DNA from: a virus
Virus record (IMG/VR): IMGVR_UViG_3300029267_003703
Location: 21,448 to 85,447 of that record
DNA length: 64,000 bases
Reading direction: 5' to 3' (one strand)
Positions 32,574 through 62,479 of this stretch are shown here, piece by piece. Positions within the stretch are counted from its first letter, which is position 1, and every line of letters starts with the position of its first letter. Both the position numbers and the translations under genes were made by a program. The notes beneath the pieces are model-generated. The model was given only the letters and a program-made list of their open reading frames with translations. It was not told the origin of the DNA and searched no databases.

Positions 32574-32690
32574 GAGCTTCTCCAGGAAGAACTCGAACAG
32601 GGTGCGGTCGAACTTCCCCCCCTACGGTCTCCAGCTTCTCAAGGTCGAATTGTACTTTCATCTGTTTTCCCTCCTGGTATTCTACCTCAC

Positions 32691-33944: not shown

Positions 33945-33947
33945 GGT

Positions 33948-34358: not shown

Positions 34359-34359
34359 G

Positions 34360-37832: not shown

Positions 37833-37999
37833 CACTTCTCCTCGATCTCGCCGGTCTCTTCGAAGGGCTCGGTGCCGCAGCTGGGGCACATGAGAACGTC
37901 ACCATGCCTTTCGATCTTGGCGCCGCACTTGGGGCAGCCGCCGCTGGCGAACTTCTTCATCTTGTCGTTCTTCGACTCGTCGACTCCGTACTTGTCCAT
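37832..37999 (-). CDS. 55-aa zinc-ribbon protein (below ORF-track cutoff)
   Basis: MDKYGVDESKNDKMKKFASGGCPKCGAKIERHGDVLMCPSCGTEPFEETGEIEEK; AGGAGGT SD. Confidence 0.75.
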   Translation of the reverse strand: MDKYGVDESKNDKMKKFASGGCPKCGAKIERHGDVLMCPSCGTEPFEETGEIEEK

Positions 38000-38000
38000 C

Positions 38001-38471: not shown

Positions 38472-38764
38472 TTCGCGGCCTTTGCTTCTTTGGCGGCTTC
38501 GTGCCTCGCCATGTTCATGGCGCTGTACTTGCGAACGCACCCGCACATCGGCATGACCTCTCCGCAGTCCTCGCAGATCTTGCCCTTGCCGGTGCCGTTG
38601 CAGGCCATGCACCGGTAGTCCTTCGTCCTGAAGTTCCAGTCGTGCAGGCCCGTGCCTCCGCAGATGCGACAGGTCCGGTCCCCTGGCTCGCGGTGTGCGT
38701 CGATGGGTTCTGGGAAGGGCACGACTGGCAGCACCTTCGGCAGCCTGTACTTTCTCTTGCTCAC
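38468..38764 (-). CDS. small Cys-rich protein with DnaJ-type zinc-finger repeats
   Basis: CRICGGTG, CMACNGTG, CEDCG. Confidence 0.7.
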   Translation of the reverse strand: MSKRKYRLPKVLPVVPFPEPIDAHREPGDRTCRICGGTGLHDWNFRTKDYRCMACNGTGKGKICEDCGEVMPMCGCVRKYSAMNMARHEAAKEAKAAK

Positions 38765-40818: not shown

Positions 40819-40839
40819 GTGCTCCTCCTGGGCGGCCTA

Positions 40840-41982: not shown

Positions 41983-42965
41983 TGCTTGTCACTCCTTGTT
42001 CTTGTGGCCCACAACTCAAAAGGCTCTGCGGATTGCACCGCGCCTACGACTTCATCTGGGGGCATGTGGTCGGGCTGTTTCCCGTACGGCACGTCTGCCA
42101 CCCGAACCGGGAAGGAACGGGACAGCTTTCGTCCGGCGATCAGGGTACCACTGAACCCCGCCTTGTCGCCATCAAACATCAGCACGACTCTTCTTCCCAG
42201 GCGGGACAGAATAGTGCACTGTTCATCGGTCAAACCAGAGCCGATAGTAGCGACAACCTCGTGGATTCCTGCTTGGTGAACCCACATGCAGGCTTTGAAT
42301 CCTTCGACTACTACCAGTGGCCCGTCGTTGAAAGTAAGAAGAGGGATGACCTGGTGCAGGTTCCAAAGAAGGACCTTGCGTTCGGTGCCGACCGTCGGCA
42401 TGCCCCAGATCTTGTACTCTTCCTTGTAGATCTTGTACCGGCCGCCTTCTTCTCCTTCTGTTCTTCTTCCGCTGACACCCACCAGACGGCCGTGGATGTC
42501 ACGCAGGGGGTAGGTAACGCGCATGTGTGTCTTGTCGAAGCCGACGTCGAAGTACCGCAGCACCTCCTCCTCGAAGCCCTGCTCGAGCAGTTCGACGGGG
42601 CACCATTGGAAGAGGCCGAGCAGCGATTCGGGGATGGTCGGGTTCGACAGCAGGTTGTCTCGAAGAGGATCGTGCCGAGGCACTTGTTCTTCTTCGAGAC
42701 GCTCGATGAGGGCGCCGTACCGTATCTTGATGACGGCCGGAGCCTCCCCGATGTCCCGGAGGAACCGGGCGAGGTTGCCCTTGGCGTGACAAGAGAAGCA
42801 GAAGAAGAGGCCACGTGAGATGTTCAGGGACAGTGTGCGCGACCCCCCGGGGTCATCCGAGGTATGGAACGGGCACTCCGCCATGATCTGGTCCGGCCCC
42901 GACTTCCGTACCTTCTTCAGGTACTTGTACGCAAGATCGAGAACGGCATCTTCTGGCGTAGTCAC
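41943..42965 (-). CDS. DnaG-type DNA primase (CHC2 zinc finger plus TOPRIM)
   Basis: CPFH...CFSC, YPLRD..G..VG.SGR, VVEGF, MFDGDKAG, KQPD. Confidence 0.9.
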   Translation of the reverse strand: MTTPEDAVLDLAYKYLKKVRKSGPDQIMAECPFHTSDDPGGSRTLSLNISRGLFFCFSCHAKGNLARFLRDIGEAPAVIKIRYGALIERLEEEQVPRHDPLRDNLLSNPTIPESLLGLFQWCPVELLEQGFEEEVLRYFDVGFDKTHMRVTYPLRDIHGRLVGVSGRRTEGEEGGRYKIYKEEYKIWGMPTVGTERKVLLWNLHQVIPLLTFNDGPLVVVEGFKACMWVHQAGIHEVVATIGSGLTDEQCTILSRLGRRVVLMFDGDKAGFSGTLIAGRKLSRSFPVRVADVPYGKQPDHMPPDEVVGAVQSAEPFELWATRTRSDKQWLNKILSSYKAT

Positions 42966-44413
42966 TTCTTCCCCTTGGTGCTCTTCTTGTTGCTGGGTGT
43001 ACGTTTGACCGACTCCAGTTGCTCCTTGAAGCTCTTGAGTGCGGCTGCTTCTGCGTCTTTCGACGATGGCTTTCTTTTCTTCTTCTTCTCTGCTGGTGAT
43101 TCGCCAGGGTCGTTCGCGTCGACCTCCTGAGCCTCACGCAGCTCTTTTTCTGTTACCCTTTCTTTGAAGTAGAAGTCCGTGGCCGGAACTCCTCCGATGC
43201 GGAAGCCAGGCAGGTCCCATTCACGGGAGCCCGCTATGCCCATCATGCAGGTGTTCTGGCTCCGGTCCTCGACCTTCTCGTTGACGACTCGGATGGCCGC
43301 AGTGGCGTCTTGACTGAAGGCGTCAGAGAATGCGAGCTCGTCGAGCTCCGCCATCTTGTGCCCAGCCGCTTTGCGGTTGGCCTGGCTCGTGGCAACGAAT
43401 GGGATCCCTAGCCGCAGTTGGAGGTCGCGAGCTTGTCTCGAGATTGCTTGGACCCGAACGTTGTCGCTGACGGCCCGCTTGTGGCCAGAGCTCATCAGGT
43501 AGATGCCGTCCACGTAGACGATGTGCGGCTTGTACTTGCTGACCTTCGCACCGAGCCACGCGATGGTGTCGCCGCCTTCGGACACGTCCTTGCCGGCCAG
43601 GCAGATGAGACGGTCGCTGTGTTGAATCTGCTGCGACAGGTCTCGTACCGCCCGGAAGTTGGCTCGGTCCTCTTTGGTCAGCTTGCCCCTGCGGAGCTCT
43701 CGGTATGGGACCTCTGCGAGACAGGCGGCGACGCGTTTGATGATGTTCTCGGGCGTCATCTCCTTGGTGTAGACCAGGATGTTGAGCCCCTGTGTGAAGT
43801 GGAAAGCGATGAGGTACGACAGGATCCACGACTTCATACTCTTGGGTCGGCCGTAGATGATGACGTAGTCGTCGTGCCACAGGCCGAGCGACTCCTCTTG
43901 GATGGCTTCCCAGGGCCACTTGATGGGCGACTCCCCGAGTCCTTCCTCAGCCAGGCAGTACTTCTCGTAGATGGTGTTCATAGCGGCCCCGAACGTGACG
44001 TCCTTGTTGGAGCCGTCGCTGATCTCCATGAGGATCTGCGTCTGCCTGTTGAGGTTGGAGATGGCTTCCAGGGGACTGACGTCGAGGTTGCCGAGTGCCA
44101 GCTCCATGGACTGCCTTGCTTGAACGGTGACGCGGTTGGTCCTGACCATCAGGCACAGGGACGCGGTCGTCATGCCGGGGTCGTCGCAAAGCACGAACGT
44201 GGGAAGCAGGGCCTTGAGCGTGTTGGGGCCGATGACCGAGCCCGCCGACTCTTGGAAGAAGCTGTACAGGTGAGTGAACGTGCCCCTACCCAGGTCGGTC
44301 TGGAAGTCTTCGTGGTTGATGCCCCACTCCAGCACCTCGGCCAAGTTCCCGGTGCTGATGATCCTGCTTAGGAGCTGCAACTCTACATGGTGCAGCCCTC
44401 CGCTCGATTGCAT
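42962..44413 (-). CDS. DnaB-like replicative helicase
   Basis: Variant Walker A GRPKSMKS, EMT, VYVDGIYLM, SQANR, SDAFSQDA; adjacent to the primase. Confidence 0.85.
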   Translation of the reverse strand: MQSSGGLHHVELQLLSRIISTGNLAEVLEWGINHEDFQTDLGRGTFTHLYSFFQESAGSVIGPNTLKALLPTFVLCDDPGMTTASLCLMVRTNRVTVQARQSMELALGNLDVSPLEAISNLNRQTQILMEISDGSNKDVTFGAAMNTIYEKYCLAEEGLGESPIKWPWEAIQEESLGLWHDDYVIIYGRPKSMKSWILSYLIAFHFTQGLNILVYTKEMTPENIIKRVAACLAEVPYRELRRGKLTKEDRANFRAVRDLSQQIQHSDRLICLAGKDVSEGGDTIAWLGAKVSKYKPHIVYVDGIYLMSSGHKRAVSDNVRVQAISRQARDLQLRLGIPFVATSQANRKAAGHKMAELDELAFSDAFSQDATAAIRVVNEKVEDRSQNTCMMGIAGSREWDLPGFRIGGVPATDFYFKERVTEKELREAQEVDANDPGESPAEKKKKRKPSSKDAEAAALKSFKEQLESVKRTPSNKKSTKGKK

Positions 44414-44425
44414 TCATACCCCTCC

Positions 44426-44746
44426 TCACAACGGCTTCGTCCCGTCGTTGAAGTGCGCGCCGAGGTCCGCCGGCGGGCCGCCGATCGACGAACCTTCCCC
44501 AGCTTCTTCCCCTCCTTCGAAGGTGACGCTGGCCATGTAACGCTCGATGGAGTCTCGCAGGGCCAGCACCTTTTCCCTGACGTCGGGAGATGAGAACTGG
44601 GTGACCGTGGTGGTGGCGTAAGTGGCGCCGTCCTTAGTGTTGATGAGCTTCGCCTCGGCGCGAATGTCCATGGCGGCGTCCGTCAGCAAGTCGACCTTGA
44701 TGGACGTGACCGCCAGCGCGTCGGCCTTTAGCGTTCCTTGGATCAT
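44426..44746 (-). CDS. hypothetical protein
   Basis: Start MIQGTL at 44746 after GGAGG, ATGA overlap. Confidence 0.65.
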   Translation of the reverse strand: MIQGTLKADALAVTSIKVDLLTDAAMDIRAEAKLINTKDGATYATTTVTQFSSPDVREKVLALRDSIERYMASVTFEGGEEAGEGSSIGGPPADLGAHFNDGTKPL

Positions 44747-45063
44747 CGCTCTGCCTCCTGCGCCTGCCAGACACGGGCAGGCAGCTCCTTGGACAGCTTC
44801 TGAAGACCGTCGCGGGCGAAGTGCTGGGCAATGGTCAGGCCGGTGGCGTAAGCCTGTTCGATGGCCTTGGTCGTCTGGTTGCAGTGCAGCTTTACTGCCA
44901 CCGAGCACTTCGCGTAGCCGAATGGCAGGTTGTAGCCGGCCGTGACCGTGACCTCCGCTGGCGGCCCGTCGCCTACGTCAATCAGGTCAGCCATGAGGGC
45001 GCCACCGAGCACTTCGTGCAGAGTCCGGCCGTCCTCGTACTCGAAGACACGTTCAGCTTCTAC
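44743..45063 (-). CDS. hypothetical protein (start 45063 or 44994)
   Basis: Coding-like 3' part of ORF 44743..45333. Confidence 0.55.
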   Translation of the reverse strand, partial: VEAERVFEYEDGRTLHEVLGGALMADLIDVGDGPPAEVTVTAGYNLPFGYAKCSVAVKLHCNQTTKAIEQAYATGLTIAQHFARDGLQKLSKELPARVWQAQEAER

Positions 45064-45524
45064 CACGGCAGCACCGCCTTCTTGGGCTTGGAGTAGTTGG
45101 GGGTGTACGTGAGGACTTGGTCCTGCACGTCGGTGGGGACTTCCCCCTGGTCGACGAGCATGAGGAACGAGTCCTTGGGCATCTCGTGGTGTTCGCGCTT
45201 GAACACCTTGCCGCGCCACGTTTCGAACTGCTTCTTGCCGACGAGCTCGAAGCACCTCTCGTGGTCGATCTTGATGGTGAAGTGCTTGAACGAGAAGTCG
45301 GAGAAGCTCACGCCCATCCCCGTGTCCGCGCACTTGACCCGCAGCTCCTTGTCCACCGCCTCCACCGCATCGTTGTAGCGGTCGACGATGCTCGCGTAGA
45401 CCTCGAACAGCTCCCGGTGCATCTCACGGAAGCTCTCGAGCTCCTCCTTTGCGTTGAGGTACTGCTGTCCGCTCGAAAGCTCGGACGCTTCAATCGTGAT
45501 CGTCTTCTTCCTCTTGACCGACAT
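45060..45524 (-). CDS. hypothetical protein
   Basis: GAGGAG SD before MSVKRKK at 45524. Confidence 0.7.
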   Translation of the reverse strand: MSVKRKKTITIEASELSSGQQYLNAKEELESFREMHRELFEVYASIVDRYNDAVEAVDKELRVKCADTGMGVSFSDFSFKHFTIKIDHERCFELVGKKQFETWRGKVFKREHHEMPKDSFLMLVDQGEVPTDVQDQVLTYTPNYSKPKKAVLPW

Positions 45525-46365
45525 AGGTATCTCCTCTTGGCGCGAACTCACCCTTTGATTCAATCTGGTGTCGCTTGTAGATCTCAGCTGCGAAAGAGAC
45601 CGCGTTGTACATCTTGACGGCGGCGGCATCCTCCAAGTCGTGCTCCGATTCTCGAGTTGAACGAAGCACCCATGCGGGGTGCACAGTTGGAATGCACAGG
45701 TACTCCACCTGACGCTGGATGACCGGCAGAGACACTTCGCCTTTCGTCTTTCGAGTCCATGCGTTCTTCTTCGCCGTCAGGCTGGGCAGGTAGGTTGCTC
45801 CTGGTATGTGAATCGATCTGGGTGCCCCGTTTTCCTTGGTGATGGTGATGGGCTTGCCGGTCAAAAACTCTGTGGCCACGGCCCCTAGCGTGACGATGAC
45901 GACCGGGTCGACCTTGTAGATCTCCTGGTAGATACGAGGCGCGCACGCCTTCATGTGAACGGAGGTGGGAGGAGAGTCCTCCCAGGCGATCTGTGGGGGG
46001 TCCTTCGACCCCGGGGGTCGCCGCTCGAACATGACGTTGCCGTCCTTGTCGAGCTTCTCCACGCAGCTTCTGCATGCCACGATGTTGGTGATGTAAGAGA
46101 TGTCCTTGATGTGGAGCATGGAGAGCGTCTGCCGCAGCAGCTTGCCGGACGGGCCCACGAACGGGCGGCCGGTTCCTTCCTCCACGAACCCAGGACCCTC
46201 TCCGATGAACATGATGCCACCGGGGCGGCCCTCTCCCTCGACGAAGCAGCGACGGAGAGCCAGCCTCCGCGCGCCGAGAGAGCACTTGGTGCAGTTGCTC
46301 CACTCCTCCGATAGCTCTTTCAAGCTCTTTCGGAAGTCTGGAACGAACTCTCGTTCTTCCGCCAA
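45490..46365 (-). CDS. family 4 uracil-DNA glycosylase
   Basis: CTKCSL, IGEGPG..E...GRPFVGPSG.LL, YITNIVACR, LGAVA, HPAWVLR. Confidence 0.92.
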   Translation of the reverse strand: MAEEREFVPDFRKSLKELSEEWSNCTKCSLGARRLALRRCFVEGEGRPGGIMFIGEGPGFVEEGTGRPFVGPSGKLLRQTLSMLHIKDISYITNIVACRSCVEKLDKDGNVMFERRPPGSKDPPQIAWEDSPPTSVHMKACAPRIYQEIYKVDPVVIVTLGAVATEFLTGKPITITKENGAPRSIHIPGATYLPSLTAKKNAWTRKTKGEVSLPVIQRQVEYLCIPTVHPAWVLRSTRESEHDLEDAAAVKMYNAVSFAAEIYKRHQIESKGEFAPRGDTYVGQEEEDDHD

Positions 46366-46401
46366 GCCTCACCTCCTTGGATCTAGTTTCTGTTTGGTGT
46401 C

Positions 46402-48171
46402 TTATGGCCGGTCTACGGCGCGGATGATGTCGTAGTAGTACGGCCCTCCTTCGTCGACTGGCCACTCACGTAGGTGCCTGCGCAGGTTGTGGCAGATGTT
46501 GTGCATCAGCGAGACGTCGTCTTCGAAGATCTCGATGAGCGGCTCTTTCTTCTCCGGCTTCATGCGCAGCGCCCGCCCCATCACCTGCTGAATCCAGCCC
46601 TTCTGCGAACCGGGCTCGAGGATGACGACGGTGTCCAGCTCTTGGCTGTCGAGTCCTTCTCTGCCGTACTTGGCGATGGAGAATGTGATCTGCTTGTCGT
46701 GCAGCATCGCCAGCCGGGTCTCACGCGGGACGTCGTGAATCATCAACCCGGCGTTCGAGTTGTGCCGCATCGCCTCTTTGAGGTAGGCCTCCTGCCTGTT
46801 CTTCAGGATGTTGTCGAGCCGTCGCCTCGCGGAGTCGCAGGCCATCTTGCCCGCTACCCTGTCGAGCTCCCGGCGCTGCCGCTCGGGCAGCAGGGTCGGG
46901 GTGACCTCGAGCTGGGCGCGTAGCTTTTTGATGGCCTTCTCCATGTCCTTTACGGTCTTCACCCGCATCTCTCGGTCCTCTTTGCTCGGCATGAAGGACA
47001 GGAAGCGTTGCAGGGTTCGAATGACGGACAGCTTGTCCCTCTTGTCGAGCGAACACGCCTCCTGCACGTTGGCTGGCGGGTCGAGCTCCTCGAGGGTGGG
47101 CTCGGGAATGTCGGAGTAGAACGTGCCGAGACCGTTCCAAAGCGACAGCAGGTTGACCAGCTCCTCGATGCTGTTGGACAGCACGAGAATCTTCCTGCCC
47201 TCGTCGAGAAGCTCCCCGATGCGGTTGAGGACGAAGTGAAGGCGGTCCGGCCAGCGTCCGAAGAAGCCGGCCAGCATGCCATAGTGCAGCTCCCCCCGGG
47301 CGTCGTAGATCTGTTGAACGACCGAGGGGTCCGCGGTGTTGGGGGCAAAGCCCGTCTCACGGAAGTTGATGTGAGGTTTCAGGTCTTGCGCCAGGTTCTT
47401 GTAGAGCACGGGGCCGACGTGCAGCTCCTGCACGATGTGCATGCCGTCCTTGCGCTCGGGGGTGGCGGTGAGACAGTACCTCCGGCCGTAGAACAGGTTG
47501 GCCGTCTTCGAGAATGTCTCGGCGCCGATGTGGTGGCCCTCGTCCCAGATGATGACGCCGAAGTACCGCCGGAACTCTTCCGAGAACCGGTCGGCCTTCT
47601 GCGACAACGTCTGGTAGGTAGCCAGAACGATGGGGTGCTCCCAGTCGAACTTGCTGCCCTCCACGCGCCCCACCCCGCCAGGCACGTCGAGGAACTCTTC
47701 GATGGCCGCCGCCCATTGGTCGAGCAGCGTGCTGTTGTCGACGATGATGATCGCTGGAACCTTCAGCTGGGCGATGAGCTCGAGGGCGCAGACCGTTTTG
47801 CCCTTGCCGCACGCCAGCTGAAGGACGCCGCCCCTTGCGAGCAGCATGTTCTTGACGGACTGGCGCTGTGTGAAGTCCTTGCGGTCTCGCCAGTCCAGGA
47901 TGATGCGGCTGCTGACTTCCGTTTGTTCGAAGGAGGAAGGTCGGCAGTCGACGATGTCGAAGTCGCGGGGCCGGTTGTACCTCCAGAACTCCCGGGGCAC
48001 GATCAAGTGGTGCTCCGTTTCGACGTAGAGCTTGTAGTACTTGATCGTCGTCGTGCCCGGGGAGTCGAAGGTGAGCGCCCGCTTGGTGCCCTCGACGTTC
48101 AGAACCTCCTTAGGTACCCAGAGATCGGAGTCCAGGTACCCCTTACCGCGCTCCCTCCTTACGGCCCTCAT
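46402..48171 (-). CDS. superfamily 2 (XPB/UvsW-like) DExH helicase
   Basis: LACGKGKT, WDEGHH, LTATPER, EGLD, QVMGRALR. Confidence 0.9.
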   Translation of the reverse strand: MRAVRRERGKGYLDSDLWVPKEVLNVEGTKRALTFDSPGTTTIKYYKLYVETEHHLIVPREFWRYNRPRDFDIVDCRPSSFEQTEVSSRIILDWRDRKDFTQRQSVKNMLLARGGVLQLACGKGKTVCALELIAQLKVPAIIIVDNSTLLDQWAAAIEEFLDVPGGVGRVEGSKFDWEHPIVLATYQTLSQKADRFSEEFRRYFGVIIWDEGHHIGAETFSKTANLFYGRRYCLTATPERKDGMHIVQELHVGPVLYKNLAQDLKPHINFRETGFAPNTADPSVVQQIYDARGELHYGMLAGFFGRWPDRLHFVLNRIGELLDEGRKILVLSNSIEELVNLLSLWNGLGTFYSDIPEPTLEELDPPANVQEACSLDKRDKLSVIRTLQRFLSFMPSKEDREMRVKTVKDMEKAIKKLRAQLEVTPTLLPERQRRELDRVAGKMACDSARRRLDNILKNRQEAYLKEAMRHNSNAGLMIHDVPRETRLAMLHDKQITFSIAKYGREGLDSQELDTVVILEPGSQKGWIQQVMGRALRMKPEKKEPLIEIFEDDVSLMHNICHNLRRHLREWPVDEGGPYYYDIIRAVDRP

Positions 48172-48686
48172 CCTCCCCCCTCACCTCCTCCGTGCCGCGT
48201 GAACGGGGCGTTGGAGATGAAGTGTGCCAGGGACATCAGGGCCCCTACAGCAGCGCCTCTGCCCATGGTCAACGCAGCGTTGCGGAAGCTGAACTGCTCC
48301 ATCGGCTCTAAGGTCGCGAGCATGGACGGAACGGTATACCAGTTCGACGGGACCATCTCCACCGGGTTCATCTGGATGACCTCGTGGCCGACGGGGACGC
48401 CTCTTGTTACAGGAGTAGCGGAATTTTGGGGGGTAGAGAGAAACGCCGGACGCTTCACCGACGTGGACAGCGCCGCCGGCGGTGTGCCTCGGGTCAGGTT
48501 CGTGACCGGGACTTGGAATGATTGGGACACTTTCCTCGCTGACTTCTGCGCCCCGCACGATTGGAAGTAGTCGCACACGGGTCTGATGTTCGATCCTCCT
48601 GTGCTCATGTAGTTCGGATCGTATCCGCCCCTGCACTCAACAGCCTGAGCGGACCACAAGTTGCCGAAACAGTCCGGCTTGCCCAT
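48168..48686 (-). CDS. hypothetical protein with N-terminal Cys4 motif
   Basis: PDCFG...EC...CDYFQSC; AAAGGAG SD; first gene of the replication operon. Confidence 0.7.
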   Translation of the reverse strand: MGKPDCFGNLWSAQAVECRGGYDPNYMSTGGSNIRPVCDYFQSCGAQKSARKVSQSFQVPVTNLTRGTPPAALSTSVKRPAFLSTPQNSATPVTRGVPVGHEVIQMNPVEMVPSNWYTVPSMLATLEPMEQFSFRNAALTMGRGAAVGALMSLAHFISNAPFTRHGGGEGGG

Positions 48687-51042: not shown

Positions 51043-52066
51043 GTTCGACGAGAACACCATGCGCGGCTTCATCGAGGAGATGGAGAAGCAGGCTCTCACA
51101 GGAAACCAGGTGCTCGGGCTGGCCACGGGCACCGGCGCGGCGCTCGGAGGTCTTTGGCAGGGGGGCAAGGCGTACCGAGAGGCCAAGCAGCAAGGTGCCA
51201 GCACTTCGGAGGCGTTGCAGCAGGCGGGCAAGAAGGGCCTGATTGGTGCGGGCGCCGGTGCGGCGATTGGTGGGGGACTTGGGGGCATCAGCAAGCTGCG
51301 TAAGGGCAAGGGGCTGTTCACCATGCCCAAGTCCTCCCCCATCATGGGGGGCCAGGTCATCGACCCCGGCAAGTCGCTCGCTGAGTTCGGCGGGCATGTC
51401 GGGCACATCTGGACGGGCAAGGGCAACGTTCGCAGTTTCGGCGGGGGAGCCGTGCCCGCCATAAAGGCGGAGTCTGAAGCGGCCAAGGCACTGGAGAAGG
51501 TCCGACAGGCCCCGGTGGGCGAGGTGAAGGATCCTCGGTTCCTATCCTCCATTCGAGGAAAGATCTCTCCCGCTGAGACCAAGCGGCTGGCTGAGGAGAA
51601 GGCTCAGAAAGCGCTGACAGCAGCTCAGGCCAGGGCCAAGGCAATGGAGCGGGCGGAGAAGGCAGGTCTCACCAGCATCCCAGGCACCCTCACCGGTATT
51701 GCGCGGGACCCTCGAGGAACTGCCGGCGCGTTCGGTGACTACATTCGGACCATGAGCGGGGGAGAAAAGGCATTCGCTCTTGGCTTCCCTGCTGCCTTTG
51801 CCGGCATGGGGGCGCTGGCTCCGGAGGAGGGGCAGAGCAGGCTCGGCGGAGCTCTGTCAGGCGCGGCATCGAGCGTGCCGTGGATGATGCCGTGGATGCC
51901 CAAGAGCTTCGCCATGACCATGCTGCCCGGGTCCTCGTCCATCATGCCTCAGATGGCCCTTGGCCGCCCCTTGGAGATGGCGGGCAGCGCTGCCGGTAAC
52001 GCAGCGACCTCGGGATACCGTCGGGTCGCCGGCGCGGTTCAGCCGCCGGAGGAACAGGGTAGATGA
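51035..52066 (+). CDS. Gly/Ala-rich basic protein with hydrophobic segments and EMEKQA leader; probable internal (ejected) virion protein
   Basis: Acidic 20-aa leader ending KQA, then glycine-zipper helices. Confidence 0.55.
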   Translation: MPEFDENTMRGFIEEMEKQALTGNQVLGLATGTGAALGGLWQGGKAYREAKQQGASTSEALQQAGKKGLIGAGAGAAIGGGLGGISKLRKGKGLFTMPKSSPIMGGQVIDPGKSLAEFGGHVGHIWTGKGNVRSFGGGAVPAIKAESEAAKALEKVRQAPVGEVKDPRFLSSIRGKISPAETKRLAEEKAQKALTAAQARAKAMERAEKAGLTSIPGTLTGIARDPRGTAGAFGDYIRTMSGGEKAFALGFPAAFAGMGALAPEEGQSRLGGALSGAASSVPWMMPWMPKSFAMTMLPGSSSIMPQMALGRPLEMAGSAAGNAATSGYRRVAGAVQPPEEQGR

Positions 52067-54090
52067 GCTTCTTTTCAGGAGGACTGCAGGGGGTGGCCAC
52101 GGGGCCCGGTTCGGGGCTGCGCTTTGCGTCTACCCGAGGTCGGATTCAGGGCAGCCCGTCGAACGGGATGAACTACCCGAGCCCGTTCTTCGACATCGGG
52201 CACACGTACCTGCCGGTCACGGTCAAGGCGCTGCTCCGCTGGTGCCGGTACTACTTCATGACGAACCCGCTGCTCAATGCGGGCACGTTCAAGATGGCCG
52301 AGTATCCGGTGACCGACCTGCTCATCGAGCACGAGAACCCCTCGGTGCAGAAGCGGTGGTCAGAGTACTTCCACGAGCACTTCATGTACCCGGCCTTCCA
52401 GATCGAGGTGGGCCTGGACTACTTCACGTACGGCAACGCGTTCATCACGATCTACTACCCCGTGCGCAAGTGGCTCAAGTGCAGGCAGTGCGGCCATCAG
52501 GACCACGAGGCGGACCTTCGGTCGAACTACATCTTCACCAACTTCGAGTTCCGCCTGACGTGCCCGCGCTGTGGGCACGTGGGGACCGCTGACGTCAAGC
52601 AGCAGTACCTCAAGAACGCCAGCGAGATCCGACTCGTTCGGTGGAACCCCGAGGATGTGGAGATCGACGTCAACGACATCACCGGCGCCGTCGACTACTA
52701 CTACATCATCCCGCCGATGATGAAGAACGACATCACGGTGGGCAAGAAGAGTGTGGTCGGGGAGATCCCGCAGATCTTCATCCAGGCTGTGCGAGAGAAC
52801 AAGGGCGTGAAGTTCGCGCCCGACAACTTCTTCCACCTCAAGCGGCCGAGCCTCGCCAACCTAGACCGGGGTTGGGGCACTCCGCTGCTTCTGCCCGTGC
52901 TCAAGGACGCCTACTACCTGCAGATCATGAAGAAGGCGCAGGAGGCGATCCTGCTCGAGCACATCATCCCGCTGCGCATCCTGTTTCCGCAGGCCGGCAG
53001 CGCGAGCTCGGACCCGTACACGACGATCAACCTCACTCAGTGGCGGGAGCACGTCGCCGGCGAGATCGCTCGGTGGAGGTACGACCCGAACTACATTCCC
53101 GTCATGCCGCTGCCCGTGGGGCACCAAACGCTGGGCGGTGACGGCCGGGCCCTGTTGCTGTCCGGTGAGATCCAGCAGTGGAGTGACCACTTGGTGGTCG
53201 GCATGGGCGTCCCGCGGGAGTTCATCTTCGGTGGCATGAGCTACGCTGGCACCAACGTGTCGATGCGGATGCTCGAGAACGCGTTCCTTCGATACATCAG
53301 CCGGCACTTGGCGCTGTCGAAGTTCGTGATGAAGTCCGTGTCCAAGTACATGGATTGGCCCGAGGCCACGTGCAAGTTCAAGCCCTTCAAGATGGCCGAC
53401 GACCTCCAGCGCAAGATGTTCCTGCTCAACGTCAACGCGCAGGGCAAGATCAGCGACACTTCCTTCCTGGCCGAGTGCGACTACGACCAGTCGGAAGAGA
53501 ACAAGATCATGCTGCGCGAGAACAAGGAGCGCCTCGAGGCCCTCAAGGACCAGCAGGTTGCGCAGGCCGAGGCGCAGGGCGAGGCCATGCTCGTCAACGC
53601 TAAGTACCAAGCGAAGATGCAGCAGGTCATGATGCAGGCACAGCAGGCGCCCGTCGCCCCGGGCGAGCCGGGCGGCCCCGAGCAACAGATGCAGGGCGGA
53701 GGTCCTGGCGGGCAAGGAGCCATGGGCGAACCAATCCCCGGGGGCCAGCCCGCCGAACAGGCGCAGCCCCAAGCGCAGCAGGCCGAGCAGGGCTACTTCC
53801 AGCAGCAGGTCGGCAGCCCGCTCAACATGGGCCAGGACATGCAGTCGAACCAGATGATGAACATCGATCTGCCATCGATGGCGATGCAGCAGGCCCGCAT
53901 GATCACCCAGCTCCCGCCCGAACAACAGCAGACCGCCATCCAGAACCTCGAGCAGCAGTCCCCCGAGCTCGCCGAGCTCGTGCGCCAGTACCTCACCCAA
54001 CTCCAGCCGCAAAGCGGAGGCGGGGGCGTCGACATGCGCCCGCAACCCAACGTGTACCCGGAACGGCGCGAGACGCCGATGGTGACTTAG
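52063..54090 (+). CDS. portal protein with zinc-finger insertion and Gln-rich tail
   Basis: YFTYGNAF, FFHLKR...GWGTPLLLPVL and GMGVPREFIFG portal-like motifs. Confidence 0.7.
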   Translation: MSFFSGGLQGVATGPGSGLRFASTRGRIQGSPSNGMNYPSPFFDIGHTYLPVTVKALLRWCRYYFMTNPLLNAGTFKMAEYPVTDLLIEHENPSVQKRWSEYFHEHFMYPAFQIEVGLDYFTYGNAFITIYYPVRKWLKCRQCGHQDHEADLRSNYIFTNFEFRLTCPRCGHVGTADVKQQYLKNASEIRLVRWNPEDVEIDVNDITGAVDYYYIIPPMMKNDITVGKKSVVGEIPQIFIQAVRENKGVKFAPDNFFHLKRPSLANLDRGWGTPLLLPVLKDAYYLQIMKKAQEAILLEHIIPLRILFPQAGSASSDPYTTINLTQWREHVAGEIARWRYDPNYIPVMPLPVGHQTLGGDGRALLLSGEIQQWSDHLVVGMGVPREFIFGGMSYAGTNVSMRMLENAFLRYISRHLALSKFVMKSVSKYMDWPEATCKFKPFKMADDLQRKMFLLNVNAQGKISDTSFLAECDYDQSEENKIMLRENKERLEALKDQQVAQAEAQGEAMLVNAKYQAKMQQVMMQAQQAPVAPGEPGGPEQQMQGGGPGGQGAMGEPIPGGQPAEQAQPQAQQAEQGYFQQQVGSPLNMGQDMQSNQMMNIDLPSMAMQQARMITQLPPEQQQTAIQNLEQQSPELAELVRQYLTQLQPQSGGGGVDMRPQPNVYPERRETPMVT

Positions 54091-55750: not shown

Positions 55751-55911
55751 CAGTCGTCGTCTCCTTCCTCGTCCTGGTCGTCGTCCTCGTGCCAGGCTGA
55801 TTTTTTAGGGTCGAAGCCGGCCTCCTTGATGTCCTCCTCCCGCTCTCCGAAGAGAGAGGTGAAGGACTCCTGCGCGATTCGGGCCATGTCATTCAGCTTG
55901 CTGGTGGACAT
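55750..55911 (-). CDS. small acidic protein
   Basis: AAGGAG SD before MSTSKLND. Confidence 0.6.
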   Translation of the reverse strand: MSTSKLNDMARIAQESFTSLFGEREEDIKEAGFDPKKSAWHEDDDQDEEGDDD

Positions 55912-55979
55912 CTCAATCTCCTTGTCGGAGGGCCACCTCCTGACCCTCCGGTTAGAGGGGAAGGGCGCGTACTTCGTCC

Positions 55980-56043
55980 CTTCAAGGCTCTTATGCCTGC
56001 GATCACGCACTCCTTGCCGCCGCTTCAGCCTGCGCGGTACAGT
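55980..56043. promoter_or_regulatory. back-to-back divergent promoter pair (candidate)
   Basis: GGCATAAGAGCCTTGAAG on -; TTGCCG-N18-TACAGT on + upstream of the RNAP gene; same spacing as 48725-48778. Confidence 0.55.
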
Positions 56044-56068
56044 TGCGAGCAGTCCAGAGAGGAACAGG

Positions 56069-59000
56069 ATGGCGTACCTCGACCCGCAGGAAGCCTTCGA
56101 CCACTTCCAGAAGAAAGTAGTTGAGGGAGTAGAGCAACAGTTCCCGGTGAAGGGAAAGCAGCGCAGCCTTCACCTGGAGCGTGTGGAAGTTCCGGAGCCC
56201 CCTAGCCCGGACGACATCAAAGCGCAGCAGCAGGCGAAGATCGACGGCAAGAGCTGGGGCGTGCCCGTGTACGCCCATCTGACCCTCAAGGACAACGCCA
56301 CCGGCAAGATCGTGGACAAGCGCAAGGTGCGCGTCGCCGAAGTCCCGATGATGACGAAGCGCTACAGCTACATCGTCGGCGGGCAGGAGTACCAAGTCGA
56401 CAGCCAGTGGCAGCTCAAGCCGGGGGCGTACACCCGCCGCAAGCAGAACCAGCAGCTCGAGACGCAGTTCAACACGACGGGCCCCGGTTCCAAAACGTTC
56501 CACTTGAACTTCCACCCCGACAAGAAGCAGTTCACGGTACGGTGGAACAAGGCGGATATCCCGGCGTACCCGATCCTCAAGACGCTTGGGGTCACTGACG
56601 AGCAGCTCAAGAAGTCCTGGGGTGAGGACATCCTCGACGCCAACAAGAACGCCCGCGGAGTGGACGGGGCGCTCGCCGCGCTGTACCGCTCGGATCGGGG
56701 GCGCAACCCTGAGAACATCGAGCAGGCCAAAGAGCATCTGTGGGACACACTCCAAGCGTCGAAGATGGACAAGAGTGCCACGCACATGACGCTCGGTCGT
56801 CCCTTCGAGCATGTGAATGGCGACGCGCTGCACATCGCGTCCAAGCGCCTGCTCGACGTGCAGCGAGGCGGCGGCGAGGATGATCGTGACAGCCTGGTGT
56901 TCAAGAGGCTCCGTACGGCTGGCGACTTCGCCCTCGACAAGATGAACAGCCAGAAGTGGGCCGTGCAGAACAAGATGGCCAAGAAGCTCGACACGGCGCA
57001 GAGCGTGCGCGACGTCGTGAAGTTCGAGCACTTGAACACGGCGGTCCACAAGACCTTCAGCGAGAATCAGGCGTCGCGCGTTGCCAGCCAGATCAATCCG
57101 CTCGAGATGGTCAGCTCCTCGATGCAGACCACGGTCATGGGACCGGGCGGCATCCAATCCGAGCACGCCGTCATCGACCAGACGAAGTGGATCAACCCTT
57201 CGCAGTTCGGCTTCCTCGACCCGATCAACACCCCCGAGGGCCCGAAGACCGGCGTCACCCTGCGGCTGCCCATGGGCGTGCGCAAGAAGGGGGACGAGCC
57301 CCGCATCGCCTTGACGAACATGCAGACGGGCAAGACCGAGTTCGTCTCCCCGGGCCGAGCCATGCAGGAGAACGTGCTGCTGCCTGACCAGGTCGAGTGG
57401 AAGGATGGCAAGCCAAACCCGATCAATGGCAAGAAGTCGAAGATCTTGGGGCCGGGCAACGAGCTCCAGGTGGGCGACGCCAGCAAGGCGAAGTACGTCA
57501 TGCGGCACCCCACGCAGGTGTTCAACATCACCTCGAACATGATCCCGTATCTGCATTCGACGCAGGGTAACCGTGCAGGCATGGCTTCTCGCCACCTCGA
57601 ACAGGCGGTGAGCCTCGAAGGAAGGCAGGCCCCTCTGGTGCAGGTAGCCACGGGCGCGGGCAAGGGCCCGTACGACACGTTCGAGGGAATGGTCGGGGCC
57701 ATGTCGGGGCACCAGTCCCCCATCGACGGGACGGTGGAGAAGGTCACCAAGGATGGCATCCACATCAGGGGCAAGGACGGGGTCAAGCACACCGTTCAGC
57801 TGTACAACCACTACCCGCTCAACGACGTGAAGAGCACCATGCACTCCGAGCCGCTGGTCAAGCCCGGCGACGTGGTGAAGAAGGGGCAGCACATCGGGGA
57901 CACGAACTTCACGAAGGACGGCAAGCTGGCCCTCGGCACCAACCTGCGAGTCGCGTACGCCCCGCTCAAGGGCTACAACTTCGAGGACGGCGTGGTCATC
58001 AGCGAGTCCGCGGCGAAGGCCATGAGCTCGGTGCACATGACGAAGCACTCGTTGGCGGTCGAGCCGGACATGAACTTCGACCCCAAGAGGTTCCGTGCGT
58101 TGCACGCCGGTACCTACAAGACCGAACAGCTCGATAAGGTGGGGGAGGATGGCGTGGTCGCCGTTGGTACCCGGGTCAAGCCCGGTGACCCCCTCGTGCT
58201 CGCCACGCAGCCCTTCAAGATCAAGGATCGAACGGGCATCGGCGCGTGGAAGAAGAACATGTCGGGCGTGCATACCGACAAGAGCGTGAAGTGGGACGGT
58301 GACTACGAGGGAGAGGTCGTTGGCGTGCACCGTAAGGGCAAGAGCGTGCAGGTACACGTGCGCACAGTCGAGCCCATGCAGGTGGGCGACAAGCTCAGCG
58401 GCCGGTACGGCAACAAGGGCATCGTCACCAAGATCCTCGACAACAGCCAGATGCCGCGCACCAAGGACGGCAGCCACGTCGAGGTGATGCTCAACCCGGC
58501 AGGCATCCCCGGGCGCATCAACCCGTCGCAGGTCTTCGAGACCGTGGCGGCGAAGGTGGCCGACAAGACGGGCAAGCCCATCGTCGTGCAGAACTTCAAG
58601 CCTCACGTGGACCAGCTGCAAGAGATCAAGAACTTGGCCAAGGCGCACGGGGTGAGCGACACCGAGGAGCTGTACGACCCAGAGACCAACCAGAGCCTCG
58701 GGCAGATCCTCACCGGCAAGCAGTACATGCTCAAGTTGGTGCACCAAGTAGAGAAGAAGGGCGCGGTGCGCTCTGGCATGTCGCTGCCCGGCACGGACCC
58801 GGAGTCGTACGACCGCAACCTGCAACCCACGGGCGGCGGGCATCACGGCGGGCAGAGCATGGGCTCTCTTGGCATGTACGCCATGCTGGCCCACGGGGCC
58901 AAGGCCAACATCCGAGAGATGCAGACGTACAAGAGCGAGGGCCCAGACCCCGCGCCGGCGGAGGCCAAGAAGTGGAAGAGTCAGCACAACGAGGTGTGGC

Positions 59001-62000
59001 AAGCCATCCAGAACGGCTCCCCTCTTCCCCCTCCGAAGCCCTCGTTCGCCTTCTCGAAGTTCAACGACTACCTGAAGGCGTCGGGCGTCAACATGGAGAA
59101 GAACGGGCATCGGTTCGTGCTGACGCCGATGACCGACAAGCAGATCAGGGACATGAGCGCCGGCAAGCTGCCGAAGCCGGACCGCAAGCTCAGCTACAAG
59201 CTCGACAAGGACGGCAACCCTATGCCCGTGAAGGGTGGGCTGTTTGACGAGCGCATCACCGGCGGGCACGACGGCAAAAACTGGTCGCACATCGAGCTCG
59301 CTGAGCCCATCCCGAACCCCGTGTTCGAGGCCCCCGTACGCGCGCTCACCGGGCTGACGCAGAAGCAGTTCAACGATGTCATGGCCGGCCGCGCCGGCGT
59401 CACCCCTGGCGGCGCCTTCACGGACAACCCCCGAGCAGGGCTGACTGGCGGGCACGCCATCAAGAGCATGCTCAAGAAGGTGGACGTGCAGGCTGACCTC
59501 GAGCGCGCCAAGGCCGAGCTCAAGAGCACGCCCAAGACCAAGGTCGACGCCACGCTCAAGAAGGTCAAGTACCTCGAGGCGCTCAATCGGACTGGGCACA
59601 CGGCTGAGGAGGCGTACATCCTGCACAACCTGCCCGTCATTCCTCCGAAGCTGCGCCCCGTCTCCATCCTTCCGGACGGCAGCCTCAACGAGGCGGACTT
59701 GAACGGGTTGTACTCGGACTTCGGCCAGCTCAACGCGCAGATGGGTGACCCCGTCATTCGCAACAAGCTGCCGGAGGAGCGTAAGGCAAACCTGCGGGGC
59801 GCTTACTACGACGGCGTCAAGGCGCTCATGGGCATCGGCATTGCCCACAAGGACCAGAAGCAGAAGGGCCTGCTCAACCAGATCCACGGCCCTGAGCCGA
59901 AGAAGGGGTTCTTCCAGAAGACGCTGATGAATCGCCGGCAGGACCTGACGATGCGCTCGACCATCGTGCCCGAGCCCTCCCTGGGCTTGGATGAGGTGGG
60001 CATCCCAGAGCACTACGCCATGGACCTGTTCCGTCCCTTCGTCGTCAAGCAGCTGGTGCAGTCCGGGTCGGCTAAGTTCGACCTCGACGCGCACAAGATG
60101 ATCAAGGCGAACGATCCTCTCGCGAAGAAAGCACTCGAGCGGGTGATGGACGACAAGCCGGTGCTACTCAAGCGCGACCCTGCGCTGCACAAGTACAACG
60201 TGCAGGGCTTCAAACCGCGGCTCGTCGAGGGCAAGGCCATCAAGATCCACCCCCTGACGTGCTCGGGCTACAACGCGGACTTCGACGGCGACACCATGAG
60301 CGTGTACGTGCCCATCTCTCGGGAAGCCGAGGCTGAGGCGCACAAGATGATGCCCTCGAACAACCTGTTCAGCGACTCGACGGGTAAGGTGATGTACCAG
60401 CCGACGCACGAGTCCGCGCTCGGTCTGTACAAGCTCACGCGCGTCGACAAGAAGACGAACAAGACCTTCGCAAACCCGGGTGACGCCATCAAGGCCGCGC
60501 AGGCCGGCAAGATCGGGGTGACGGATCTGGTCAGCATCAAGGGTACTGGGCAGACGACGGCGGGGCGCCTTCTGGTGGCCGCCGCGCTTCCGCAGGACAT
60601 GCAGAAGCAGATCGTCAACGACCACAAGTTCGTGCTCGACAAGAAGGGCCTCAACACGATGCTCACGACGCTCGCCAAGCAGAGCGGAGGACTTCAGGAG
60701 GGGCAGCGCAACACGTACGGCCAGTACGTCGACAGGCTCAAGGATCTGGGCAACGGCGCCGCGTCGGGCATGGCCCCCGTTTACTTCGACAAGTCCCCGG
60801 GCAACAACGTGCTCGACCCCAAGAAGCAGCAGTTCGTTCGCATGGACGCGCACACGCTCAACCTGAACGACCTGTCGCCTGACAAGGCCACGCGCGACCG
60901 CATCCTTGCTGACACGCAGAAGAAGGTGGATGCAGTCGGCAAGATGAGCCTCTCGCAGGCCGAGAAGGATCGGCGTGCGGTCGATCTGTGGACGCAGGCC
61001 GACAAGACGATGGGCATGGCCCACAAGCGCAAGATGATGCAGAAGCCTAACAACCTCGGCATCATGAACATGAGCGGCGGCAAGCCGAACTGGGACCAGT
61101 ACAAGCAGTTCACCCTGGCTCCGATGCTCGTAACCGACACCTCAGGCAAGACCGTGCCCATTCCCGTCGACAAGAGCTTCAGCGAGGGGCAGGACGTCTC
61201 GGGCTACTGGGTCGGCATGTACGGAGCTCGCATGGGCGCCGTGCGCAAGGTGCAGGAGGTGCAGGAGCCAGGCGTCATCACCAAGGCCATGCAGAACACC
61301 ACGATGGACAACCTCATCGTGGACCACGACTGCGGGACGACTGGAGGAGTGTCGCTCAACGTCCACGACCGCTCCATCGAGGGCCGGCACCTTGCCAGCG
61401 ACTTCAAGCACGGCAAGTTGCACGTGCCGGCGGGTACCGTGCTGAGCCCCGACATCATTGGGCAGATCCGCTCTGTGAAGAAGGACGCGAATCTCGTCGT
61501 GCGCAGCCCGCTCAAGTGCCAGCACGAAAAGGGCATGTGCCAGAAGTGCATGGGCATCGGCCCCGACGGCAAACACTATGAGGTGGGCACGAACGTGGGC
61601 GTCATGGCGGCGCACTCGCTGGGGGAGAAGACGACGCAGATGATGCTCAACTCCTTCCACACCGGCGGCGTGGCCACGGGCCGCAAGGACCCGTTCGAGC
61701 AGTTCAAGCAGCTGGTGAACCTGCCGGAGAAGGTACCGAACGAAGCGACCCTCGCCGTGCGTTCGGGCACCATCACCAAGGTCGAGCCCCACAAGCTGGG
61801 GGCGTACGTGTACATCGATGGGCAGCCCCACTTCGTCGGCCGTGACCGTGGGGGCAAACCGCTGAACGAGTCGCTTCCGGTCCCCGGCTTCAGCTACGTG
61901 CCTTGGCAGCCGCCGAAGGCAGGGATGAAAGTCAAGGCGGGGCAGATCCTGAGCGACCCCAACCGCACGACGATCAACCCTCACCACCTTCATCAGGCCA

Positions 62001-62479
62001 CGGGCAAGATCGACGTCGTGCGCAACCACCTGTCCAACGAGATCTACGGGCTGTACAAGGACCACGGCGTGGACCGCAAGCACGTGGACGTGCTCGTGAA
62101 CTCCATGACGTCGACGACGAAGGTTGTGGACCCGGGCGGCTCCGACGTGCTGCGCGGCGAGTACCGCAACACCAACTGGGTCAAGAACCAGAACAAGCTG
62201 CTTCGGGCTCAGGGCCAGCCCACCGTGCAGCATGCTCCGATCCTCAAGGGGATCAACGAGATGCCCCTGCACATGCGCGAGGACTGGATGGCCAAGCTCC
62301 AGCACCAGAAGCTCAAGCAGACCATCCTCGAGGCCGCGGCCACTGGCGGGTCCACCAGCCTGCATGGCCCGCACCCCGTGCCGGGCATGGCCTACGGCGC
62401 CGAGTTCGGCATGACCTCCAAGGACGCGCTGCGCCCGGGCAAGTCCCACCTCAAAGACGTCGAACCCTACCACTACTGA
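56069..62479 (+). CDS. single-chain fused beta-beta' DNA-directed RNA polymerase (2136 aa)
   Basis: Beta motifs: TPEGPKTG, GYNFEDG, GDKLSGRYGNKG, NPAGIPGRIN, YMLKLVH. Beta' motifs in the same frame: LPVIPPKLRP, LLKRDPALH, YNADFDGD (60269-60292), RSPLKC..CQKC, SFHTGG. AGAGGA SD before ATG 56069. Confidence 0.97.
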   Translation: MAYLDPQEAFDHFQKKVVEGVEQQFPVKGKQRSLHLERVEVPEPPSPDDIKAQQQAKIDGKSWGVPVYAHLTLKDNATGKIVDKRKVRVAEVPMMTKRYSYIVGGQEYQVDSQWQLKPGAYTRRKQNQQLETQFNTTGPGSKTFHLNFHPDKKQFTVRWNKADIPAYPILKTLGVTDEQLKKSWGEDILDANKNARGVDGALAALYRSDRGRNPENIEQAKEHLWDTLQASKMDKSATHMTLGRPFEHVNGDALHIASKRLLDVQRGGGEDDRDSLVFKRLRTAGDFALDKMNSQKWAVQNKMAKKLDTAQSVRDVVKFEHLNTAVHKTFSENQASRVASQINPLEMVSSSMQTTVMGPGGIQSEHAVIDQTKWINPSQFGFLDPINTPEGPKTGVTLRLPMGVRKKGDEPRIALTNMQTGKTEFVSPGRAMQENVLLPDQVEWKDGKPNPINGKKSKILGPGNELQVGDASKAKYVMRHPTQVFNITSNMIPYLHSTQGNRAGMASRHLEQAVSLEGRQAPLVQVATGAGKGPYDTFEGMVGAMSGHQSPIDGTVEKVTKDGIHIRGKDGVKHTVQLYNHYPLNDVKSTMHSEPLVKPGDVVKKGQHIGDTNFTKDGKLALGTNLRVAYAPLKGYNFEDGVVISESAAKAMSSVHMTKHSLAVEPDMNFDPKRFRALHAGTYKTEQLDKVGEDGVVAVGTRVKPGDPLVLATQPFKIKDRTGIGAWKKNMSGVHTDKSVKWDGDYEGEVVGVHRKGKSVQVHVRTVEPMQVGDKLSGRYGNKGIVTKILDNSQMPRTKDGSHVEVMLNPAGIPGRINPSQVFETVAAKVADKTGKPIVVQNFKPHVDQLQEIKNLAKAHGVSDTEELYDPETNQSLGQILTGKQYMLKLVHQVEKKGAVRSGMSLPGTDPESYDRNLQPTGGGHHGGQSMGSLGMYAMLAHGAKANIREMQTYKSEGPDPAPAEAKKWKSQHNEVWQAIQNGSPLPPPKPSFAFSKFNDYLKASGVNMEKNGHRFVLTPMTDKQIRDMSAGKLPKPDRKLSYKLDKDGNPMPVKGGLFDERITGGHDGKNWSHIELAEPIPNPVFEAPVRALTGLTQKQFNDVMAGRAGVTPGGAFTDNPRAGLTGGHAIKSMLKKVDVQADLERAKAELKSTPKTKVDATLKKVKYLEALNRTGHTAEEAYILHNLPVIPPKLRPVSILPDGSLNEADLNGLYSDFGQLNAQMGDPVIRNKLPEERKANLRGAYYDGVKALMGIGIAHKDQKQKGLLNQIHGPEPKKGFFQKTLMNRRQDLTMRSTIVPEPSLGLDEVGIPEHYAMDLFRPFVVKQLVQSGSAKFDLDAHKMIKANDPLAKKALERVMDDKPVLLKRDPALHKYNVQGFKPRLVEGKAIKIHPLTCSGYNADFDGDTMSVYVPISREAEAEAHKMMPSNNLFSDSTGKVMYQPTHESALGLYKLTRVDKKTNKTFANPGDAIKAAQAGKIGVTDLVSIKGTGQTTAGRLLVAAALPQDMQKQIVNDHKFVLDKKGLNTMLTTLAKQSGGLQEGQRNTYGQYVDRLKDLGNGAASGMAPVYFDKSPGNNVLDPKKQQFVRMDAHTLNLNDLSPDKATRDRILADTQKKVDAVGKMSLSQAEKDRRAVDLWTQADKTMGMAHKRKMMQKPNNLGIMNMSGGKPNWDQYKQFTLAPMLVTDTSGKTVPIPVDKSFSEGQDVSGYWVGMYGARMGAVRKVQEVQEPGVITKAMQNTTMDNLIVDHDCGTTGGVSLNVHDRSIEGRHLASDFKHGKLHVPAGTVLSPDIIGQIRSVKKDANLVVRSPLKCQHEKGMCQKCMGIGPDGKHYEVGTNVGVMAAHSLGEKTTQMMLNSFHTGGVATGRKDPFEQFKQLVNLPEKVPNEATLAVRSGTITKVEPHKLGAYVYIDGQPHFVGRDRGGKPLNESLPVPGFSYVPWQPPKAGMKVKAGQILSDPNRTTINPHHLHQATGKIDVVRNHLSNEIYGLYKDHGVDRKHVDVLVNSMTSTTKVVDPGGSDVLRGEYRNTNWVKNQNKLLRAQGQPTVQHAPILKGINEMPLHMREDWMAKLQHQKLKQTILEAAATGGSTSLHGPHPVPGMAYGAEFGMTSKDALRPGKSHLKDVEPYHY

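Follow-up and report, generated by a model that had tools for sequence, protein, structure and literature searches.

Phage-encoded multisubunit RNA polymerases

Among phages that encode a multisubunit RNA polymerase (RNAP) of their own, the closest known systems to the one considered here are those of Salmonella phage Arash, with polymerase proteins gp206 and gp216 and a sigma factor, gp10 (PMC10585845), and of the Vibrio phages D69, D181 and D148, whose homologues are unannotated. The stretch of DNA analysed here, referred to as the window, comprises 64,000 nucleotides (bases 21448-85447) of the 85,447-base IMG/VR virus record IMGVR_UViG_3300029267_003703, which is rated 46% complete, and is part of the genome, of roughly 185 kb, of an uncultured relative of Arash and D69. 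It carries a gene for an RNAP whose beta and beta' subunits form one chain, and in which the Cys4 zinc-binding domain (ZBD) of beta' is missing; a gene for a sigma70-family protein lies on the same contig. The closest isolates are D69, D181 and D148, with 31% identity to the polymerase over 92-93% of the query, and the Arash enzyme shares 34% identity over 69% of it. Arash and D69 resemble the window in the deletion of the ZBD, the changes in the clamp helices, the possession of a homologous sigma factor and the failure to find alpha and omega subunits. They differ from it in that their polymerase is made of two polypeptides, one with beta and the N-terminal part of beta' (about 1525 amino acids, aa) and one with the C-terminal part of beta' (about 606 aa), where the window has a single chain. 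In the virions of Arash, gp206 is the protein most detected by spectral count, and gp216 (the C-terminal part of beta') and gp10 (sigma) are detected as well; the virion proteomics passages of that paper make no mention of the ZBD or of a fusion (PMC10585845). No paper on ZBD loss or beta-beta' fusion in this group was found, subscription papers and supplements being outside the coverage of the search.

The non-virion RNAPs (nvRNAPs) of AR9 and phiKZ are also phage-encoded multisubunit enzymes without alpha or omega. The passages of PMC7618050 that deal with them state that neither the ZBD nor the rudder is present in the AR9 nvRNAP, and that the phiKZ nvRNAP keeps the ZBD. These enzymes are formed by four or five polypeptides, are very divergent and include a fifth subunit (gp226 or gp68) that is not of the sigma70 type. 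The RNAP of the window is unlike them: it is one 2136-aa chain and not split into beta and beta' parts, it is near to bacterial beta' (Foldseek TM-score on query length of about 0.7), and it is paired with a sigma70-family protein, whose gene is on the contig; homologues of gp68 and gp226 were not searched for.

A bacterial type of beta and beta' is likewise encoded by phages YerA41, Carin-5, RHph_Y65 and Va2, and in Carin-5 an annotated sigma gene adjoins the beta' gene. These phages differ from the window in that beta and beta' are separate genes (in the order beta' then beta in YerA41 and Carin-5) and the Cys4 ZBD is retained, and their subunits are only 24-29% identical to parts of the window RNAP. 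The YerA41 paper describes RNAP subunits and a sigma factor as associated with the particle. With the cellular RNAP-sigma70 holoenzyme the window enzyme shares the catalytic motifs, the lid, the clamp helices, the second Zn site and the predicted position of sigma region 2, but it differs in the fusion of beta to beta', in the lack of any detected alpha or omega, in a shorter rudder, in the absence of the large E. coli insertions and in the replacement of the residues that contact sigma.

A fused polymerase without the beta' zinc-binding domain

The open reading frame (ORF) of the polymerase extends over 55826-62479 on the plus strand. Its likely start is the ATG at 56069, which follows a purine-rich stretch for ribosome binding (GAGAGGAACAGG). 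Along the protein, the Pfam domains Rpb2_3 and Rpb2_6 of beta are followed by Rpb1_1, Rpb1_2, Rpb1_3 and Rpb1_5 of beta' (E-values of 4e-53 for Rpb2_6 and 7e-31 for Rpb1_2), and in phmmer comparisons the second half matches solved beta' chains of Thermus and E. coli at about 1e-100 to 1e-88, the best at 2.5e-100. The double-psi beta-barrel catalytic core of beta and beta', with its NADFDGD motif, is present. Because these domains are ordered and the matches are to bacterial beta' chains, the product, judged on its sequence, is a single-chain fused beta-beta' RNAP of bacterial type. The positions of the features are collected in Table 1.

Table 1. The RNAP gene of the window with its features, and the portal gene upstream.
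Feature	Residues (aa)	Position in window (nt)	Strand	Basis or remark
RNAP gene, fused beta-beta' multisubunit type		56069..62479	+	2136 aa; Pfam and phmmer
Junction of the missing beta' Cys4 ZBD, peptide KGGLFDERITGGHDGKNWSHIELAEP	1055-1080	59231..59308	+	in frame with the 2136-aa ORF
Loop GGHDGKNW replacing the ZBD	1065-1072	59261-59284	+	alignment to E. coli RpoC
Lid-equivalent segment, retained (RPVSILPDGSLNEA)	1196-1209	59654..59695	+	aligned to E. coli LRPLVPLDGGRFATS, which we take to be the lid
Clamp helices, coiled-coil scaffold kept, sigma-contact face replaced	1210-1254	59696..59830	+	AlphaFold2 and per-position counts
Shortened rudder-equivalent loop	about 1255-1266	59831..59866	+	alignment to E. 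coli
Catalytic NADFDGD motif	1402-1408	60272..60292	+	read in protein; beta' matches
Second beta' Zn site	C1755, C1817, C1824, C1827	61331..61549	+	aligned to E. coli DCGT...C...C..C
Portal protein gene, upstream of the RNAP gene		52063..54090	+	BLASTP 2e-91 to Arash gp204

The polymerase was aligned to RpoC of E. coli K-12 (L006). The GLF..R and HIEL blocks that flank the ZBD align to it cleanly, and between them RpoC residues 65-101 (37 residues, including C70, C72, C85 and C88) correspond to only six residues, which lie within the loop GGHDGKNW. The whole protein has five cysteines, at 1398 (just before NADFDGD), 1755, 1817, 1824 and 1827; with none before residue 1398, it has no N-terminal Cys4 ZBD. 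The original prediction, made from the letters of this DNA and a list of its ORFs, had claimed that the zinc ribbon is absent and that the second Zn site is kept, and the alignment bears out both statements, since it places no cysteine in the six-residue gap and the last four cysteines on the E. coli site. In two relatives (P0031 and P0116) an aspartate stands in place of the last of these cysteines, the motif reading CQLD or CQMD where the window (residue 1827) has CQKC.

The same deletion is found throughout the family. In a set of 122 aligned sequences, consisting of the window protein, 119 metagenomic cluster representatives, Arash gp206 and the D69 homologue, the ZBD position is occupied by exactly six residues, with zero cysteines, in every one (122/122), and the segment matching residues 1020-1110 has no cysteine and no insertion longer than 8 aa in 80 of 80 IMG/VR loci. 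A strict pattern for the loop matched 54 of these loci; the other 26, read by eye, have a short loop with W-S/T-R or W-G-H endings. Such agreement among sequences and loci shows that the gap is due neither to chance nor to an assembly error. As a Cys4 ZBD is present in 4/4 of the other bacterial-type phage beta' lineages checked (RHph_Y65, YerA41, Carin-5 and Va2), the loss is confined to the family of Arash, D69 and the window and is distinct from that of AR9. The N-terminal ZBD of beta' has been called common to all multisubunit RNAPs, with reference to Lane and Darst, and the very divergent AR9 enzyme is the only exception named in those passages (PMC7618050); here the domain has been lost from a polymerase near to the bacterial ones.

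Homologues of the RNAP are encoded in at least 451 IMG/VR stretches, and the architecture is kept in at least 122 proteins at 52-88% identity. Most of the at least 120 metagenomic proteins are fused and measure about 2120-2160 aa; their contigs reach 197 kb. Many homologues are longer (2470-2890 aa; P0007-P0009, P0011, P0012, P0014, P0017 and others), and the PF14528 domain that they contain, of the LAGLIDADG type, points to inteins within the polymerase gene. A homing endonuclease is also annotated within the RNAP-matched region of D181 and D148.

A protein lacking a domain might be a captured bacterial rpoBC that is decaying or inactive, in which case the loss of the ZBD would be damage without functional meaning. 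The protein is indeed far smaller than beta and beta' of E. coli taken together, and it has no segments aligning to three large lineage-specific insertions of E. coli and no beta' C-terminal tail. The 6.4-kb frame is nevertheless unbroken and shows a strong codon bias (G+C of 0.90 at third codon positions, GC3, against 0.39 at second positions, GC2), the catalytic motifs are kept, the architecture is conserved in the proteins and stretches counted above, and the Arash homologue is the most detected protein of its virion in the proteomics passages (PMC10585845). Decay is thus already contradicted by conservation, and we give it hardly any weight.

Another possibility is that the ZBD is supplied in trans by a small protein, so that the enzyme would not be truly ZBD-less. 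Two minus-strand ORFs of the window, 9096-9404 and 37832-37999, encode CxxC...CxxC ribbons with zinc-ribbon Pfam matches below threshold, and both are conserved, in 13/14 and 12/14 near-complete relatives, respectively (P0278, 13 of 16 records; P0279, 12 of 16). On the other hand, neither ribbon is detected in Arash or D69, which are ZBD-less as well (0/2 each), although such short proteins are hard to detect at that distance; ORF 37832-37999 lies inside a replication block, between a RecA-like gene and a PolA gene; and small zinc ribbons are common in phages. Provision in trans seems very improbable. The homologue of one of these ribbons in a related genome (G003) has an in-frame TAG.

Altered clamp helices on a conserved scaffold

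The clamp helices of beta' form the coiled coil on which sigma and NusG dock. This coiled coil is present in the window RNAP, in two strings at 59696-59743 and 59780-59830, and shows zero net length change against E. coli residues 264-309. In an AlphaFold2 model of residues 1001-1480, built from a 40-row alignment (mean predicted local distance difference test, pLDDT, of 79), helices are predicted at 1210-1226, 1228-1233 and 1236-1254; the means of 10-residue blocks are 75-95 over model residues 1-250 and 78-91 at the clamp helices. The best Foldseek matches of the model are bacterial beta' chains, with TM-scores of about 0.63-0.73 on query length. Across the family the scaffold is strongly kept, as judged from the numbers of the 122 sequences with the E. 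coli residue: D264 in 121, N266 in 121, L268 in 119, Y269 in 122, N276 in 117, A305 in 118 and G310 in 117.

The face that contacts sigma has been replaced. In the sigma32 open complex, the beta' residues touching sigma region 2 are R275, R278, R281, L282, L285, I291, E295 and M298, as given in the passages of PMC10216364 on this contact. The window has L, Q, D, V, N, R, L and A at these positions, so that none of the eight is retained, and within the family the numbers of sequences that have the E. coli residue are 0, 8, 2, 5, 0, 0, 0 and 0 of 122, respectively. Some of the changes reverse or remove a charge, with R281 changed to D in 101/122 and E295 to L in 96/122, while other residues of the second clamp helix have become fixed in this family (R1243 in 122, Y1247 in 120, D1248 in 117 and G1249 in 121 sequences). 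Alterations of the clamp helices and a shortened rudder had both been proposed for this enzyme from its letters, and both are confirmed by the comparison: the rudder is 6 to about 9 residues shorter than that of E. coli, depending on the alignment, with a modelled shape of low confidence (pLDDT below 50 at 1258-1265).

These changes had been taken to mean that the polymerase probably does not use the sigma70 of its host. Against this stands the possibility that it still uses a host sigma, and that any sigma factor of the phage redirects the core RNAP of the host, as the phage sigmas of T4 and SPO1 do. The coiled-coil scaffold, the lid and, by alignment, a segment of flap-tip length are all present in the RNAP, which leaves room for the docking of some type of sigma. 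Reviews, in the passages that concern large phages, describe phage multisubunit RNAPs as being without sigma homologues and phage sigmas as typical of phages without an RNAP of their own, where they are thought to act on the host core (PMC7598289, PMC13282480). What argues for a host sigma is offset, in the first place, by the contact face just described, with 0/8 residues kept and the prevalent R281 to D and E295 to L changes, and further by what is found for the sigma factor of the phage itself.

A sigma factor encoded by the phage

The original prediction had concluded that the enzyme needs either a promoter-recognition mechanism other than sigma or an unrecognised specificity factor, for which three small proteins were suggested. 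A mechanism without sigma is probably not needed, as the contig encodes a recognisable sigma70-family protein. A specificity factor does exist, but it belongs to the sigma70 family and is not among the small proteins named: 48168-48686 has no Pfam or PHROG match, and 9096-9404 and 37832-37999 are the small Cys4 zinc ribbons with sub-threshold matches discussed above.

The sigma ORF (G000:C1:8738-9607; locus L004:970-1839) encodes 289 aa and lies outside the window, about 11.8-12.7 kb before its start and about 47 kb upstream of the RNAP gene. A scan of the whole record with Pfam Sigma70_r4 gave one weak match, outside the window, at this ORF. Sigma70_r3 scores 37 bits on it against a cut-off of 25.3, and many NCBIfam sigma models match it weakly, up to 6e-08 and far under their cut-offs. 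The protein is homologous to Arash gp10, which is annotated as a sigma factor (BLASTP 4e-18). Its AlphaFold2 model, from an 80-row alignment, has a pLDDT of 89, and Foldseek pairs it with SigA, SigS and SigB chains at a probability of 1.0 over about 280-300 columns; the low TM-scores are what one expects when a three-domain protein is modelled without the polymerase. Regions 2, 3 and 4 thus appear in the order typical of the family, from the region 3 domain and the match of the fold, and the ORF is a recognisable, if divergent, member of the sigma70 family. An extra N-terminal stretch of about 55 residues, rich in Lys and Glu, is missing from most of its homologues, which are about 250 aa long.

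One copy of the sigma gene was found on the contig of the window. A word-based search for homologues found only 7, and exhaustive HMMER searches were needed, which recovered 908 cluster representatives with a threshold of E <=0.001 and 354 with one of E <=1e-10, mostly of about 250 aa. A homologue occurs in both Arash and D69 (2/2) and in 16 of the 19 long RNAP-bearing records of IMG/VR, including 13 of the 14 that are at least 90% complete. This joint occurrence in near-complete genomes argues against a sigma that serves the host core only, as does the detection of both RNAP and sigma in Arash virions, reported in the proteomics passages of PMC10585845.

The docking of the sigma factor on the altered helices was modelled by folding RNAP residues 1001-1300 with sigma residues 40-155. 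The median score of the complex is 0.80 (runs of 0.84, 0.80 and 0.78), while the best of three controls scores 0.00; the runs share at least 87% of their contacts, and the pLDDT of the partner is at least 83. The predicted interface joins RNAP 1213-1245 to sigma 102-118, a helix resembling region 2.2, and to sigma 74-83, and it takes in the equivalents of all eight published contact positions. The model supports, without showing it, the binding of the phage sigma to the clamp helices, and with a reservation set out below it also speaks against the use of a host sigma, which we consider unlikely when all these points are taken together.

A putative two-polypeptide holoenzyme

Searches for alpha (PF01193, PF01000) and omega (PF01192) were negative in all three records examined, namely the contig of the window, which is 46% complete, Arash, which is deposited as complete, and D69, a 186,708-base record labelled 'genome assembly, chromosome' (0/3), and positive in 14/14 control genomes; very divergent homologues could be missed.

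The explanation that we favour, and hold to be probable, is that of a self-contained enzyme delivered by the virion and made of the beta-beta' chain and the phage sigma, with sigma docking on the altered clamp helices. The polymerase has shed the lineage-specific insertions, alpha, omega, the N-terminal ZBD of beta' and part of the rudder. It still has its catalytic core and lid as well as the clamp helices and second Zn site, and its single chain would stand in for the core that alpha otherwise assembles. Promoters would be recognised by the divergent sigma70-family factor of the phage, whose region 2.2 would dock at the canonical clamp-helix positions, where the polymerase side of the contact surface is altered. 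The two proteins probably bind each other, as the predicted complex suggests, and the host sigma70 is probably not used, so that the resulting two-polypeptide holoenzyme would be insulated from the sigma factors of the host. RNAP and sigma are probably also carried inside the capsid and injected, so that transcription can start; for this phage, packaging is suggested by homology to Arash and by the portal-RNAP gene order common to both.

The loss of the ZBD may, in addition, change pausing, termination or contacts with the promoter. In host RNAP, the put RNA of phage HK022 binds the ZBD element of the exit channel, as described in the passages of PMC9378689 on that RNA, and those of PMC10216364 on sigma28 say that the ZBD helps the sigma28 holoenzyme at the -35 element; the exit channel of the window enzyme would miss the former element, and its promoter complex would miss the latter aid. 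A broader proposal, more tentative and to be regarded as possible only, joins all these points: widespread phages of about 185 kb would possess a natural two-polypeptide holoenzyme, without alpha, omega or ZBD, that is packaged and injected, is orthogonal to the sigma factors of the host owing to co-evolution of the two faces that meet between clamp helices and region 2.2, and may ignore signals in the nascent RNA because the exit-channel element has gone with the ZBD.

Several observations weigh against the favoured explanation of a self-contained, virion-delivered enzyme. The Pfam models of sigma regions 2 and 4 fall under their cut-offs on the sigma ORF. One record of 91% completeness (G007, locus L020) and two incomplete ones carry the RNAP and have no sigma match. 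As the contig is only about 46% complete, other factors may be encoded in its missing part. The score of the predicted complex may mirror a likeness to solved holoenzymes and not affinity, because sigma region 2 and the clamp helices are a textbook pair; its mark is one that 58 of 80 solved complexes and 2 of 110 mismatched pairs also attained, a calibration that holds only roughly here, since the prediction was fed with alignments built by the authors. Covariation at the predicted contacts, in 16 paired genomes, gave a mean mutual information of 0.254 against 0.204 in a null that keeps the RNAP columns, and 9% of draws reach the observed value (0.6% in a shuffle of the pairing that ignores phylogeny); Arash and D69, from which the clamp or sigma segments were extracted incompletely, and G002, whose sigma is cut by the contig end, were left out. 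Only in Arash has packaging in the virion been shown, and the RNAP of that phage, at 34% identity, consists of two pieces. No promoter is claimed either, because both motifs tried occur at chance frequency in the DNA: TTGC-N20-TANNNT matches 2 times, with 1.34 expected and 2 reached in 36 of 100 shuffles, and GKCAKAAG matches 8 times, with 6.5 expected and 8 reached in 39 of 100.

With regard to the records carrying sigma, cluster P0122, which is 99% identical to the sigma factor of the window, has 170,766 bases as the length of its longest listed contig; record G007 is of that length, yet it gave no sigma match.

A polymerase of this kind is a natural test of the need for the ZBD in initiation, in signalling through the RNA exit channel and in antitermination. 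The Arash/D69/window family also combines an RNAP with a sigma factor, whereas the reviews cited above, in the same passages, assign large phages to two groups, which have either an RNAP or a sigma but not both. If active, a single-chain core with one sigma would be the smallest holoenzyme of bacterial type, and would lend itself to structural studies and to orthogonal expression. As cultured members of the family exist (Arash and the Vibrio D phages), these predictions can be tested directly.

Neighbouring genes and other features of the window

The portal gene precedes the RNAP gene in the window, which is the gene order of Arash. The portal protein has a CxxC...CxxC pair (CRQCGH...CPRCGH), and so does Arash gp204 (CPNC...CPAC). 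Nine of ten ORFs near the RNAP gene have no match among PHROGs, the only one matched being a helicase at 46402-48171. This DNA helicase belongs to a minus-strand replication block at 32000-48200, in which the AT skew is strongly negative and which also contains genes for a family A DNA polymerase with 3'-5' exonuclease (38761-40818), a DnaB-like helicase (42962-44413) and a RecA-like ATPase (36567-37889). At 15899-18952, a 1017-aa protein ends in a Peptidase_S74 intramolecular chaperone domain, typical of tail fibres and spikes.

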